UHGV virus genome: UHGV-0145877
From: a virus
Direction: 5' to 3' (one strand)
Length of the DNA: 25,947 nucleotides
Made by a program: the position numbers and the translations under genes. Positions 3,513 to 7,494 of this stretch are shown here, piece by piece. The notes under the pieces were generated by a model, which was not told where the DNA came from, searched no databases, and saw only the letters and a list, made by a program, of their open reading frames with translations. How positions within the stretch are numbered: position 1 is the stretch's first letter; each line of letters starts with the position of its first letter.

Positions 3513-4708
3513 GACTCCACCGTTATAACGATATTTTCCGGTGTACAGGACGCAGATTCGTTGTATCTGATATCAATGTTTGATGACGACAAAGCCCCCG
3601 GGGATTTCCCAATCGTCAGTTCCTGAATATCGTAATAGCGTGCATTCCCGCCACTCACCACGCCAAGATTCGCCGGTGAGTAAATGCGACTTAAAAGGAC
3701 CGAATCACCAATCATCAGACTATTGATATAGTCGGAAATAGCCTGCTGGATCTGCTGCCCTATCTGTGAGGTATAACCCGTAAAAACTTTTAATTTAATC
3801 CGGGCATAAACAGGCACATCACTAGAGCGCGAGAATTTGATTACATGGGGATTGCCGTATTTATCCGGAACCGTAACGGATGTTGTACCGTGAGTGGATG
3901 TCCCCTGGCCTTTATTCCCTCTGATAGCCTGAGCAATATCCGTCACATCACCGCCATCCACAATTACAGCAACAGAGTGTGGCGGTAACCCGTTACCGTC
4001 CTCCGAACCAGTATCGTTTTCATAGAGTTTGTGGCGGGTTACACCGGCAACATTAGAAACAGCACCATCCAGTGCTTCAAATGGGGTTATTGATGGCAAC
4101 GCAACACTTTGCGACTGACGGATACGTAACTCCGCATCAGTTTCTGCCGGAGTGCCCACAGTGGCTGCAGCAGGATTGGTTACCGAAACCCAGCCACGGG
4201 TTGGTGTATTAATTTCAGTGATAGTTCCAGCCAGCGCCGCCACTGCACCACTGACGGAACATATTGCGGTCACCATCACTGTACCATCCACGCCGACCAC
4301 CACTGAAGCAGGCAAACGCCATATCACATTATTACTGTCTTTCACGCTGCCATTAATGATGGTTGTTCCGGCAGTTCCTGTAAGAAGCAAATCAACCGTA
4401 GAGTTCGTCGCGCCTTTACGTGAAATACCATTTATTTTCACGTTACTGGTCAGTGCAACCCCATAGCCGGTTGCCGGTGAAAAACAGTTGTAGACAGTTA
4501 TCGCCATATTATTGGCATCATGAATCGCCAGCGCCATCAGAGCCACCATCTGGCCGTCTTTGCTGTCCGGTTCGAGGTAGGCATCACTGCCATAAATCTG
4601 CTGAAAATAGCTAATCAGGGTGCTGAGTATCGTCTGATAATCAGGCGCACCGATCCCCTCCGCGGTTACCTTTGCAGATAAACCGAGAGAATCAAGGTTC
4701 AGAGCCAT
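3509..4708 (-). CDS. Baseplate J-like protein
   Basis: 399-aa ORF in the J position, flanked by W-like and I-like ORFs. Size and gene order match P2-type baseplate J. Confidence 0.65.
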   Translation of the reverse strand: MALNLDSLGLSAKVTAEGIGAPDYQTILSTLISYFQQIYGSDAYLEPDSKDGQMVALMALAIHDANNMAITVYNCFSPATGYGVALTSNVKINGISRKGATNSTVDLLLTGTAGTTIINGSVKDSNNVIWRLPASVVVGVDGTVMVTAICSVSGAVAALAGTITEINTPTRGWVSVTNPAAATVGTPAETDAELRIRQSQSVALPSITPFEALDGAVSNVAGVTRHKLYENDTGSEDGNGLPPHSVAVIVDGGDVTDIAQAIRGNKGQGTSTHGTTSVTVPDKYGNPHVIKFSRSSDVPVYARIKLKVFTGYTSQIGQQIQQAISDYINSLMIGDSVLLSRIYSPANLGVVSGGNARYYDIQELTIGKSPGALSSSNIDIRYNESASCTPENIVITVES

Positions 4709-5061
4709 TACGCCTCCGATGTAACAGTCGTTATTCCATAGAGAGTGTCGATTTCAGCGGAAAACATGACACGTCGGGTCGTGGTATCCACCGTCGTATT
4801 GAAAGAGAGGATTGATTTAACGCCCCGCGTTTCGAGGATGCGCTTACGGACGGCCAGGTTGTAGGTTTCCGGCTTCTGCTTACCGAGTACGGACTGGATC
4901 CACGGAGTCCCCTCGGTGGTGTCGAGAAACCATTGCCCATACCACAATTCGAATCGCGTTTTTACCGCCTGTGCCACGGCATCCGGTGAGTTAATCAGCC
5001 AGGTGTCATCACCGCTGCCAAAGGTGTAATCGCCATCGGCGTCTTCACGTCTGTATCGCAT
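4708..5061 (-). CDS. Baseplate wedge protein (gpW / gp25-like)
   Basis: 117-aa ORF between the spike and J-like genes, overlapping both by 1 nt. Confidence 0.5.
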   Translation of the reverse strand: MRYRREDADGDYTFGSGDDTWLINSPDAVAQAVKTRFELWYGQWFLDTTEGTPWIQSVLGKQKPETYNLAVRKRILETRGVKSILSFNTTVDTTTRRVMFSAEIDTLYGITTVTSEA

Positions 5062-5813
5062 CAGTTTACCCCGTCGGTACTGCTTCCACCGCGCTGAACA
5101 CCACCATGAGTGTGCGTATTATCGATTGGCTTGCCGTTAGCCTTCACGCTACCCAAAAACTCAACAACACCAGTGATTTTTGAAGCCACACCAGAAACAA
5201 CAGACCCCACCATGCCCCCCATCCAGGTTAACAGGCCATGAATGGTTACTTTCTCAGAAAAATCAGCCAGAGGGGCAACCACATCAAGACCACCCGGAGC
5301 GACAATTTTAATTTTCCTGGTATCAGGATTAAGCTCAAAATAGGTGCTGCCATCGTCACTACGCAACTGTGTGGCACTGGTATTAATACCGCTAATCTTC
5401 CTCGCCTGCGACTGGGGGCCTACAATACAAAACGCATCCGATAAATCATGCATTCTGTCATCGACCGGTTCCTGTATTCCGCCGCTCTGCCACCAGAAAT
5501 CAATACAACGATCGGCAAAAACGACAAGACACTCATCCCCGGCTTTAATCGGAAACGTTAGCGTACATCCTCCGCCACGTGGGAATACCACTGGAACATC
5601 CACCAGCAATGGGTAATTTTTGGTAATGCGGTTGCCGTCATTATCCTTTTCAACCGAACGGATAGCAGGCTGCACAACCGCCGTCACCGCATCAGGATCG
5701 AATGACTGAATAATGCCAGGCAAGGCGACTCGGATCTGATTCTTTGTTGTTTCCCGTTCAGATTTGAATGTTTCGGCAAGGTCGCCGCTGCGGGTCTGGT
5801 CAGATACTGCCAT
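5061..5813 (-). CDS. Baseplate spike / assembly protein V-like
   Basis: Probable start is the ATG at 5813 (MAVSDQ...) with a GGAG Shine-Dalgarno 8 nt upstream; the ORF-track start at 5834 is a TTG inside the terminator A-tract. Gly-rich C-terminus typical of spike proteins. Confidence 0.6.
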   Translation of the reverse strand: MAVSDQTRSGDLAETFKSERETTKNQIRVALPGIIQSFDPDAVTAVVQPAIRSVEKDNDGNRITKNYPLLVDVPVVFPRGGGCTLTFPIKAGDECLVVFADRCIDFWWQSGGIQEPVDDRMHDLSDAFCIVGPQSQARKISGINTSATQLRSDDGSTYFELNPDTRKIKIVAPGGLDVVAPLADFSEKVTIHGLLTWMGGMVGSVVSGVASKITGVVEFLGSVKANGKPIDNTHTHGGVQRGGSSTDGVN

Positions 5814-5832
5814 TTGGTAGGCTCCAGAAAGC

Positions 5833-5861
5833 AAAAAACCCGCCGAATGGCGGGTTTTGTT
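5833..5861. terminator. Rho-independent terminator (bidirectional; strong on the minus strand)
   Basis: aaaaaa cccgcc gaat ggcggg ttttgtt: 6-bp GC stem (5839-5844 / 5849-5854), 4-nt loop, flanked by an A6 tract and a T-tract. On the minus strand the hairpin is followed by TTTTTT, 20 nt downstream of the stop of the 5878-6273 gene. Confidence 0.75.
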
Positions 5862-5877
5862 AATTCACTGAATGAGT

Positions 5878-6273
5878 TTAAACAGCTTCATCAGTCTTCA
5901 TTTTTTCCCACTGAGAAAAAATAGTCTTAACCTCTAAGAGAGATTGCTGTGCCATTGCTTTATCTATTGCACAGCTAGTGAGGTCATAATCTGCTTCATT
6001 TCGAGCCAGTCTCTGTTGCTCAAGTTTGTAAGCCATGGATTTTAGGCTTAATGGATCATATGGCTCCAGTTTGTTTTCACTCTTATTTTTAAGATAAGAG
6101 ATAAGACTGGAATGATGATCCTTCGTATAAGCAGGAAGACTGGTCAGATTCTCTTTTATTTCATGGTAAAGCGCATAATATGCCCGCGAAATAGTATTAC
6201 GATAACCAACTTCAGAATCCTCCGCAAAGCAACGCTCCGCTGAAGATAAAAACTCAGAGCTAGTTATAGGCAT
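5878..6273 (-). CDS. Hypothetical helical protein, possibly HEPN-like (second gene of the AT-rich cassette)
   Basis: 131-aa ORF overlapping the upstream gene by 14 nt and followed by a strong terminator. Helix-forming sequence with SRAYYALYHEIKENL, HHSSLISYL and RLARNEADYDL segments that resemble the helical layout of HEPN-type domains. Not confirmed. Confidence 0.6.
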   Translation of the reverse strand: MPITSSEFLSSAERCFAEDSEVGYRNTISRAYYALYHEIKENLTSLPAYTKDHHSSLISYLKNKSENKLEPYDPLSLKSMAYKLEQQRLARNEADYDLTSCAIDKAMAQQSLLEVKTIFSQWEKMKTDEAV

Positions 6274-7030
6274 ATTTACACCCTTTCAAGCTATTTCTTT
6301 CAACGGAAAAACGTGCAATAAGATTGCAATCATCAAGTAAATCGATTGAACAAATTTCATCTGCAAGTCGCATATTCATTGCAACCACCTGTTCAGGGGA
6401 TGCATTAACTACCTCAACCAGATAAGTCCCACCAGATGCACCGTTGATGTCAGCACGATATTCAGTTGGAGGGAATTCAGCCATGACTCTATGAACAGCA
6501 AGAGCAACTTGCATGTATTGTTCTGAAGAGCATCCTGACTTTTTGTATGCTTCATCCATATCGTGAATTACCTCCTGCAAGAAGGCTTCTGCGTCATCCC
6601 TATGTTCTTCTTGGGATAACATTTTGCAATGACGTCCAAAATATTCTACGCATTTTGATAGTTTCCCTACCAAATACGCAACGCCACCAGCCCTATAAGT
6701 AAACCACTTGGTTGGATACTTATCAGCTAAAGAATAGATGTAGTAGTCCGATTTTTCGAGTAGAGAAAAACGCTCAAGCAGCTTACAAAAAATCCGCGCA
6801 AAGTTAACATCAGCATGTGGGAGGATAGCTTCAAGCATTTCAATCCCGACACTCACATCACCTTTAGCAATATGAGCCAAAGCTACAAGCGTGTCAGCAG
6901 GCGGAGTACGCTTAGAGCCATACTCCGAGACCACCTCTCGAAAGGTCCAAATATCAAGAGGTTGACCACTATTGATTATCTTAACCAACTGGTCAAAACG
7001 CTCTTCCGCTTTCAGTTTTGGTCTTGCCAC
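6260..7030 (-). CDS. Hypothetical protein (first gene of the AT-rich cassette), function unknown
   Basis: 256-aa soluble ORF with a GTG start at 7030 and no in-frame ATG upstream. Preceded by a sigma70-like promoter. AT-rich versus the flanking baseplate genes. No motif I can assign. Confidence 0.6.
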   Translation of the reverse strand: MARPKLKAEERFDQLVKIINSGQPLDIWTFREVVSEYGSKRTPPADTLVALAHIAKGDVSVGIEMLEAILPHADVNFARIFCKLLERFSLLEKSDYYIYSLADKYPTKWFTYRAGGVAYLVGKLSKCVEYFGRHCKMLSQEEHRDDAEAFLQEVIHDMDEAYKKSGCSSEQYMQVALAVHRVMAEFPPTEYRADINGASGGTYLVEVVNASPEQVVAMNMRLADEICSIDLLDDCNLIARFSVERNSLKGCKYAYN

Positions 7031-7059
7031 AGTACGCTCGCTACTTATCTTTTGGTTGA

Positions 7060-7089
7060 ATTTTATGTTCGCGTATACAGTTTAGTCAA
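7060..7089 (-). promoter_or_regulatory. Candidate sigma70 promoter for the 6260-7030 / 5878-6273 cassette
   Basis: Minus strand reads TTGACT (7089-7084), an 18-nt spacer, then TAAAAT (7065-7060), about 30 nt upstream of the GTG start at 7030. Confidence 0.45.
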
Positions 7090-7126
7090 TCCGAAGCTCG
7101 TGCTGTTGAGCCGTTTCGCACAAAAT

Positions 7127-7145
7127 CATCCTTGCAAAAAGGATG
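7127..7145 (-). terminator. Candidate intrinsic terminator after the secreted-protein gene
   Basis: catcctt gcaaa aaggatg: 7-bp stem, 5-nt loop. On the minus strand it lies immediately after the stop at 7151 and is followed by ATTTTGTG. Confidence 0.4.
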
Positions 7146-7150
7146 GGACT

Positions 7151-7492
7151 TCAACCATCAACCTTTTTACACGGGAAAGATCCGATGATTTTCGGTGCAT
7201 CCATGCTGTTCTGCAGAAGCTGGACGTTCAGGAAACGCGTTTCGGTGCCAGGGCGACGAATGTATTCAAAGCCATAATTGTTGCCATCTTTAGCAGGCAT
7301 AAGCCCCATATCAATCTTAATGCCATCAGCACCAAGATTTGTAATTTTCTGCGATGTGACGCGTTCACCGTTAATCATGTCCATTTCACCCAACCTTGCA
7401 GTGATGGTGTAAGGCCCACAATAAGCGGTGTACCCGCTTGCTGATGCCCCAAATGACATAAAGGCAACAATTAAAATGGCTAAGGCTTTCAA
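7151..7492 (-). CDS. Small secreted (periplasmic) protein with an N-terminal signal peptide; accessory gene
   Basis: 113-aa ORF; MKALAILIVAFMSFGASA-SG is a classic Sec signal peptide with an A-S-A cleavage motif. Begins 2 nt after the baseplate hub gene ends. Somewhat AT-richer than its neighbours. Confidence 0.6.
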   Translation of the reverse strand: MKALAILIVAFMSFGASASGYTAYCGPYTITARLGEMDMINGERVTSQKITNLGADGIKIDMGLMPAKDGNNYGFEYIRRPGTETRFLNVQLLQNSMDAPKIIGSFPCKKVDG

Positions 7493-7494
7493 AT

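Follow-up and report, generated by a model that had tools for sequence, protein, structure and literature searches.

Small exported accessory proteins encoded beside phage tail genes are a known theme. In phage T5, Llp is a small periplasm-facing protein that jams FhuA, has a disulfide (Cys11-Cys58) linking its termini and is encoded beside a tail-tip gene (PMC9586334). In T4, Spackle (Sp, gene 61.3) is a periplasmic superinfection-exclusion protein that inhibits the tail lysozyme gp5 (PMC7677548). Here, we analysed a stretch of 25,947 nucleotides, the virus genome UHGV-0145877, which we call the window, and focused on a minus-strand gene (7151..7492) that directly follows the baseplate hub gene and encodes a small protein of 113 residues. 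A first interpretation of the letters alone, hereafter the sequence-only reading, had seen in it a separate accessory gene for a periplasmic protein, closed by its own terminator, and had listed superinfection exclusion at the envelope, anti-defence, virulence and lysogenic conversion as candidate functions. Among these, superinfection exclusion would fit best. We tentatively favour the possibility that the protein is a periplasmic superinfection-exclusion or 'lytic conversion' factor, analogous to Spackle and Llp but unrelated to them.

Like Llp, and like the Cor lipoproteins of T1/phi80, which also face the periplasm and jam FhuA, the window protein is a small, apparently exported protein encoded beside tail-tip genes and probably made in the lytic cycle ('lytic conversion'), and one variant of its family is a lipoprotein. 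As in Llp, cysteines (here Cys25 and Cys108, which probably pair) stand near both ends of the mature chain. Yet, the window protein has a predicted signal peptidase I site, A-S-A followed by serine, and no L-x-x-C lipobox, LSGC being found only in the variant P0145. Its gene adjoins those of the hub and spike instead of a receptor-binding protein gene, and its mature length is about 95 residues against 61 in Llp. The window protein gave no Pfam, annotated PHROG or Protein Data Bank (PDB) match to Llp (8A60) or Cor, with which it has no sequence similarity. Spackle is likewise a small phage protein with a signal peptide to the periplasm (in the window, sequence features point to this), dispensable for virion structure and encoded by a phage with a tail-borne cell-wall hydrolase, which in the window would be the C-terminal domain of the tape measure. 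But Spackle is described as an early gene product (PMC7677548), whereas the window gene sits in a late tail operon. Moreover, the window protein is predicted to be an all-beta barrel, PDB profile and fold searches return no Spackle chain, and its alleles do not vary in step with the tape-measure lysin domain.

Two further groups of proteins invite comparison. Lambdoid late operons carry morons such as lambda lom and bor and the gene of the HK97 exclusion protein gp15, and a classical moron has its own promoter and terminator. The window gene shares with these its place as an extra gene in a structural operon that is probably Q-antiterminated, a lower G+C content, a patchy presence and a predicted envelope product; but it is coupled to the hub and lacks a convincing promoter or terminator, and a neighbouring pair of genes for proteins of 256 and 131 residues fits the moron pattern far better. 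The second group comprises MliC/PliC and PhiA, periplasmic beta-barrel inhibitors of lysozyme or peptidoglycan hydrolases. Matches of the small protein to these rank below avidins and many unrelated barrels, no Pfam family is hit at E <= 0.1, MliC included, and the family motifs INGxxxxSQK and LNVQLLQ differ from theirs.

The small gene begins at a TTG codon (7492-7490), two nucleotides (nt) after the hub stop codon TAA (7497-7495), and ends with a stop codon at 7153-7151. A Shine-Dalgarno-like GGGGG (7498..7502, minus strand) lies 5 nt 5' of the TTG, within the last hub codons. The open reading frame (ORF), already recognized by the sequence-only reading as starting 2 nt past the hub gene, proved to be a genuine gene: RefSeq annotates the same 342-nt coding sequence in a prophage of E. 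coli O127:H6 E2348/69 that shares 97.5% identity with the window. Furthermore, the ratio of non-synonymous to synonymous substitution rates (dN/dS) within allele types is 0.04-0.15, which reveals purifying selection and shows that the gene is real and coding in the frame 7151..7492 of the minus strand. The overlapping ORFs 6815-7444 (plus strand) and 7386-7541 (minus strand) have no family matches at all. A scan of Rfam found no RNA family near the gene, its weak matches all falling on a terminator at 5835-5858.

The proposed signal peptide was also borne out. It spans residues 1-18 (MKALAILIVAFMSFGASA; 7439..7492, minus strand), with a lysine at position 2, a 12-residue hydrophobic core (ALAILIVAFMSF) and A-S-A ahead of Ser19, and signal peptidase I is predicted to cleave after A-S-A. 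Among 184 full-length relatives, a hydrophobic N-terminal core recurs in 183, a small-x-small site in 179 and the two cysteines of the mature part in all. Variability peaks in the signal region, with an entropy of 2.4 bits per alignment column, and the mature domain is conserved; genuine signal peptides have variable residues. The predicted export of the small protein is well supported by these features. The deposited proteins of SEN34 (SEN34_20, L001 4109-4342), ST340-VIM1phi10.1 (L004 4109-4342) and ST16-OXA48phi5.2 (L043 4588-4866) lack an export signal because their annotated starts are an internal methionine or lie past the signal peptide. In SEN34 the full ORF begins at 4001, 3 nt past the hub stop. 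Several database entries in which the gene begins at an internal methionine, and so without its signal peptide, are corrected by this. The lipoprotein variant P0145 is encoded on a metagenome contig (SRR26921863_82, L052 6001-6879), where it starts 1 nt past the hub gene. It has 292 residues, with the lipobox LSGC and an extra N-terminal domain of about 190 residues ahead of the family domain, which is C-terminal.

The mature domain (residues 19-113; 7154..7438, minus strand) is predicted to form an eight-stranded beta-barrel, as judged from an AlphaFold2 model (m179b4d889fcc), alignments and column entropy. A first model, based on close homologues only, had a predicted local distance difference test score (pLDDT) of 66, which was too weak, and was replaced by one built on a 54-sequence alignment covering both subgroups. 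This final model has a pLDDT of 83.5, and of 85-92 in the mature part. Its N-terminal helix corresponds to the signal peptide and is followed by an antiparallel barrel that carries the cysteines on its first and last strands. Eight strands were counted in the first model; in the second, DSSP fuses two short ones. Alignments show Cys25 and Cys108 to be invariant even among members at 24-35% identity, and a disulfide between them would close the barrel. The hairpin between strands 1 and 2 (residues 27-39) is hypervariable, at 2.0 bits, and adjoins the conserved INGxxxxSQK motif (residues 40-50), at 0.7 bits. A PDB sequence-profile search with the small protein returned only noise (E >= 0.03), and Foldseek against PDB and BFVD gave no match at E < 1e-3, hence no specific structural relative.

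The small protein belongs to a family that is already catalogued without a function. It matches phrog_3443 (E 2.5e-46 over residues 2-112), and RefSeq gives the name 'STY1065/STY2022 family phage-derived protein' to the allele at the same position in E. coli RIVM_C036204. NCBIfam release 20 has no hidden Markov model for this STY1065/STY2022 family, and scans of the protein and seven other alleles against Pfam, NCBIfam and PADLOC retrieved no family. There are 393 homologues at 90% clustering but just 40 clusters at 50% identity among 1.8 billion representatives; this is therefore a small family, confined to Enterobacterales. Five giant proteins (1,200-5,300 residues) matched by our first profile were spurious and were not recovered with a broader one. 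Of 5,426 complete E. coli genomes, 353-408 (about 7%) carry a prophage of this group, which occurs also in Salmonella, Klebsiella, Yersinia, Serratia and Photorhabdus.

In about 50 related loci the gene lies directly 3' of the hub gene, often overlapping the hub stop codon (ATGA). The order in relatives is hub, small gene, a slot of 19-2,108 nt, and spike. This order is found in phages SEN34, 689R2/606R2, Mulock, YP3, ST16-OXA48phi5.2 and several Klebsiella phages, in 36 genome loci (Pantoea, Citrobacter, Enterobacter, Yersinia, Photorhabdus, Serratia, Rahnella and others) and in further E. coli contigs. The sequence-only reading would have given up its view of the gene for a virion component at a conserved position, and the position is indeed the same in every related locus examined. 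Nevertheless, the gene is absent from some relatives: no family member was found in Hafnia phage yong1 (whose hub is 77% identical), phage EKP1 (46%) or Providencia phage PSTCR3 (37%), and in PSTCR3 the hub gene is directly followed by the spike gene. Conversely, the gene is kept even where the slot is empty of cargo (L016, L033, L036). In PSTCR3 (L045 2963-3436), an unrelated 157-residue ORF with a signal-peptide-like N-terminus lies between the plug and hub genes, and so would be another exported protein embedded in a tail-tip module. In Apirhabdus apintestini (CP138906, L038 6001-8310), a ~2-kb insertion with IS21-like IstA/IstB-type ORFs, judged by eye from helix-turn-helix and GKT motifs, interrupts the small gene at residue ~86. 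Hub and spike are likewise in fragments at this locus, which indicates a decaying prophage.

The composition of the tail tip also points to an accessory gene. The hub gene (7495..8556) matches phrog_196, baseplate hub, at E 2.3e-88, as well as Pfam E217_GP41, and the spike gene (5061..5834) encodes a membrane-puncturing protein with a gpV-type apex motif, identified from the Pfam spike N-terminal domain (E 1.4e-44), the Apex motif and the RefSeq product name. Upstream are the genes of the tape measure (9448-11457), a Dit-like tube initiator (8861-9448) and the plug (8559-8861), and past the spike comes the sheath initiator (4708-5061), with wedge proteins and fibres beyond; all are on the minus strand. 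In cyanophage Pam3 the order is tube initiator gp17, plug gp18, hub gp19, spike gp20, sheath initiator gp21, wedge gp22-23 and fibre gp24, and the baseplate solved by cryo-electron microscopy holds gp17-gp24 only, hub and spike being next to each other (PMC9942802). The window module follows the Pam3 order one-to-one, the small protein being without counterpart. Because the Pam3 baseplate is built from exactly the shared proteins, the small gene and the cargo are the sole extras in the window module. The small gene is accessory and dispensable for the virion. The sequence-only reading was thus right in calling the gene accessory and, as far as signals can tell, its product exported. The view of the gene as self-contained finds no support, as it has no promoter-like site and is coupled to the hub.

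Indeed, we found no promoter-like site on the minus strand 5' of 7492, and the start of the gene, 2 nt past the hub stop in the window and close to it or overlapping it in relatives, indicates tight or translational coupling to the hub. A Q antiterminator is encoded upstream of the lysis genes and late operon in the E2348/69 prophage, SEN34, 606R2 and YP3. The small gene is probably transcribed within a Q-antiterminated late operon. By the established logic of lambdoid phages, lytic transcription passes through internal terminators, which insulate cargo in lysogens only.

Small-protein alleles fall into discrete types, with 60-75% identity between types and more than 90% within. Type A comprises the window and SEN34, whose small proteins are 97% identical despite hubs at 85%. 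Type B comprises 689R2 and loci of Pseudocitrobacter (L012), Citrobacter (L013), a record labelled Chryseobacterium (L015), Pantoea (L017) and Raoultella (L018), and type C two Enterobacter loci. Between the window and 689R2/606R2 the Dit, plug, hub, spike and sheath initiator proteins are 95-99% identical and the small proteins 58-59%. Judging from these identities, phages exchange small-gene alleles without exchanging the structural genes. Only the last ~10 residues of the hub, after a conserved YMDMMCEARGAxDL, are exchanged together with the allele. This involves the last 9-10 codons (7498-7524/7527), with a breakpoint at 7526 relative to 689R2, and the hub C-terminus travels with the allele because the two are physically linked. 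The small gene also stands out in composition, with 45.6% G+C against 55.5% in the hub gene and 50-55% in the flanking structural genes.

In two genomes the gene is multiplied. Serratia aquatilis (L039, NZ_CP173186, 5458-10346) has seven diverged tandem copies between hub and spike, one of them frameshifted (~7013-7329), which differ mainly in the N-terminal hairpin. An ORF of 402 residues on the opposite strand (8325-9533), a putative insertion-sequence transposase, also lies between hub and spike at this locus. Pseudescherichia vulneris (L011, NZ_BBMZ01000043, 15-2849) has four copies, the last three each preceded by an ORF of 68-97 residues that repeats the hub C-terminus, as a fragment of ~65 residues, but with its last ~10 residues changed. 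The arrangement looks like what repeated recombination within the conserved 3' end of the hub gene would leave behind, namely displaced 'orphan' cassettes. Finally, the chromosome of Mixta gaviniae (L057, CP026377.1, 5001-5357) carries a stand-alone family member between yciY and yciI, matching the family profile at E 4e-26 for a database of 1.8 billion sequences. It is surrounded by opp, yciU and cls upstream and by a tonB-like gene, yciA, yciB, yciC and ompW downstream, with no phage gene within 5 kb. The copy between yciY and yciI is fixed in a second Mixta lineage as well, a metagenome-assembled genome (L055), at 74% identity.

How might such a protein act? In the scenario that we tentatively favour, the small protein would be made along with the hub from the Q-antiterminated late transcript of SEN34-like temperate myophages (Brunovirus and relatives), exported to the periplasm by the Sec pathway and folded there into a disulfide-stapled eight-stranded beta-barrel. 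It would then bind an envelope component and stop a step in the entry of incoming related phages that follows adsorption, such as the penetration of the tail tip, the digestion of the cell wall or the passage of DNA. This would shield the cell, whether infected or lysogenic, and keep progeny from wasteful injection. The hypervariable hairpin would set specificity, so that alleles would differ in the phages that they exclude. The export signals, the predicted class of fold, the dispensability, the allele shuffling, the arrays and the chromosomal copy are observed here; what the protein targets, that it excludes phages and when it is expressed are inferred. Envelope binding in an arms-race setting seems most likely because the protein is apparently exported, dispensable for the virion, polymorphic in essentially one loop, stackable in arrays and, once, chromosomally fixed. 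The neighbourhood in the slot, with toxin- or defence-like genes and many putatively exported proteins (see below), is also in line with this scenario.

We searched for the partner of the small protein by comparing pairwise identity matrices over 17 loci. Its identity correlates solely with that of the adjacent hub C-terminus (rho about 0.55). The C-terminal 250 residues of the tape measure match an endolysin chain (PDB 7q47, E 1e-13) and phage Gp29 (9vvp, E 2.5e-20), and this endolysin-like domain, which would act in the periplasm, is a plausible target of the small protein. Against 606R2, the tape measure and the small gene are the sole diverged tail genes of the window. Yet, we had to reject the tape measure as co-evolving partner, since the matrices show no such correlation. 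The tape-measure gene is itself a mosaic (9448-11457, minus strand), being 75% identical to that of 606R2 when other structural genes are at 92-100%, and fragments of it go under the name 'lytic transglycosylase catalytic' in RefSeq.

Several observations weigh against superinfection exclusion. Across the 17 loci, small-protein identity does not correlate with that of the N- or C-terminal part of the tape measure, the spike, Dit or plug. The protein has no homology to any known exclusion protein and no match in PADLOC, and we found no paper on the family in the literature on SEN34 virion proteomics, STY1065, STY2022 or WP_012578957. No consistently placed promoter precedes the gene or the copies in arrays. 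This absence, together with the coupling to the hub in a late operon, makes expression in lysogens doubtful, and exclusion is usually most useful in lysogens.

One may go further and speculate that the small protein and the last ~10 hub residues form an exchangeable specificity cassette defining 'exclusion groups' among SEN34-like myophages. The hairpin would read a matching variable feature of the tail tip in the periplasm. The stacked prophage copies, some with a fragment of the hub C-terminus, would widen protection like orphan immunity genes in polymorphic toxin loci, and the Mixta copy would be a domesticated envelope defence. We regard this elaborate version as quite improbable.

Two other explanations are rather unlikely in our view. 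The first is that the protein provides lysogenic conversion or envelope fitness without excluding phages, for example as a periplasmic binder or inhibitor directed against host lysozyme, bacteriocins, tailocins or envelope stress, or as a virulence-associated factor. Its predicted export is compatible with this, the stand-alone copy of Mixta suggests some use to a cell without phage, and the family is present in pathogens, namely enteropathogenic E. coli E2348/69 and, going by the RefSeq family name, S. Typhi. But matches to lysozyme-inhibitor folds are weaker than those to unrelated barrels, with MliC absent from the Pfam matches, and the lack of an own promoter and the coupling to a late lytic gene would be unusual, conversion genes being expressed by the prophage. 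An opponent that is itself polymorphic would also account for arrays and allele shuffling more readily than an invariable factor of the host.

The second is that the protein helps the lytic cycle of its own phage from the periplasm, by tuning lysis and release or by neutralizing receptors or debris that would cause a loss of progeny, with no protection of lysogens; this, too, we consider not very probable. A place inside a Q-dependent late operon with translational coupling to the hub is what one would expect of such a helper, as is the retention of the gene beside empty slots. There is also a precedent, since T5 Llp is called a 'lytic conversion' protein and prevents non-productive adsorption (PMC9586334). 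Yet, the lysis cassette is distant (24.7-25.9 kb), three related phages do without the gene, arrays of diverged copies are unexpected, and a lytic role alone hardly explains a chromosomal copy free of phage.

It is very improbable that the protein is a component of the virion or of tail assembly, with its hydrophobic N-terminus serving as a membrane-inserting or tail-lumen segment and not as a signal peptide. The constant place between hub and spike in ~50 loci, the coupled expression and the joint exchange of the last hub residues would suit such a component. But its relatives have signal-peptidase-type sites, two invariant cysteines suiting an oxidising compartment and, in L052, a lipoprotein form. 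Yong1, EKP1 and PSTCR3 lack the gene, the homologous Pam3 baseplate needs no such protein to be complete, and alleles at 58-59% identity sit beside structural proteins at 95-99%. Tandem arrays and a phage-free chromosomal copy are equally hard to reconcile with a structural role. Counter-defence in the periplasm against an envelope-located barrier of the host or of a prophage, such as another phage's exclusion protein, would agree with predicted export, a hypervariable hairpin, lytic-cycle expression and the allele shuffling expected in an arms race, but is similarly remote, as a late periplasmic product that is, as far as can be inferred, not packaged comes too late for the entry of its own phage, and the Mixta copy argues for a cell-protective role.

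The stretch that follows the small gene is of a different nature. At 7127..7145 (minus strand) there is a hairpin followed by a U-rich tail (ATTTTGTG), which the sequence-only reading took for the gene's own terminator. The hairpin does exist, but it is weak, unconserved and located in the cargo block, and is probably not a terminator belonging to the gene. Its 7-base-pair stem has three G-C pairs and a folding energy of -8.7 kcal/mol (z = -1.7), and 11 of 200 shuffled sequences fold equally well. Homology with SEN34 runs from the tape measure through 7160 and picks up again at 5856, whereas that with vB_EcoM-689R2 ends at 7526 and picks up again at 5858. Since homology breaks before the hairpin, the latter is part of the variable block 7150-5859, at its left edge. 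In relatives the next gene starts 0-25 nt past the stop of the small gene or overlaps it, and the hairpin is absent; in empty slots, 19-71 nt without a terminator separate the small gene from the spike gene.

The variable moron slot is the stretch 7150-5859. In the window it contains a promoter-like site (TTGACT-18-TAAAAT, 7060..7089, minus strand; 10 of 12 consensus matches, a consensus match only) upstream of a cargo pair (5878..7030, minus strand) in which a gene for 256 residues (6260-7030; phrog_17809) overlaps one for 131 residues (5878-6273; phrog_5176). The pair, with 42% and 39% G+C against about 50-55% in the flanks, fits the moron pattern, which the small gene does not. The 131-residue protein has a weak HEPN-like similarity (PADLOC HEPN_IX, E 0.009; PDB 2hsb, E 0.31), and we found no known relative of the 256-residue protein beyond phrog_17809. 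The pair is absent from SEN34, 606R2 and YP3. A diverged homologous pair (30% and 43% identity) occupies the same slot in L050, and L052 has a pair of which only the 127-residue member matches, at 29-33% identity to the 131-residue protein.

On its right, the slot ends at a strong intrinsic terminator (5835..5858, minus strand; -16.6 kcal/mol, z = -4.8) just 5' of the spike gene, a conserved edge that is kept in at least 10 related loci. A near-identical G+C-rich hairpin, AACCCGCC-N4-GGCGGGTT followed by a run of T, is found in the window, L001, L008, L010, L012-L014, L023 and L024; it is conserved in the E. coli, Salmonella, Citrobacter and Enterobacter group and absent where the slot is empty. 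This terminator may mark where cargo insertions become fixed. Over 43 related loci (L002-L064), the distance from small gene to spike varies from 19 to 2,108 nt. RefSeq names for the cargo include YafO toxin, DUF2335, DUF4282 and a thioredoxin-domain protein, and one cargo gene has a weak EACC1 match. About 30 of the 111 cargo ORFs have a hydrophobic N-terminal segment, several with clear signal peptides (e.g. L014, L017, L018, L031), which suggests that other exported proteins gather in the slot. In these phages the region from hub to spike is a hotspot for cargo, with the small gene as its constant first member.

If the small protein is indeed an exclusion factor, it would represent a new and structurally unrelated family of periplasmic entry blockers. 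Its alleles, arrays and domesticated copy would then make up a compact system in which to study how exclusion specificity evolves. In practice, it would also be a factor to consider in predicting which temperate or therapeutic phages infect which lysogens.

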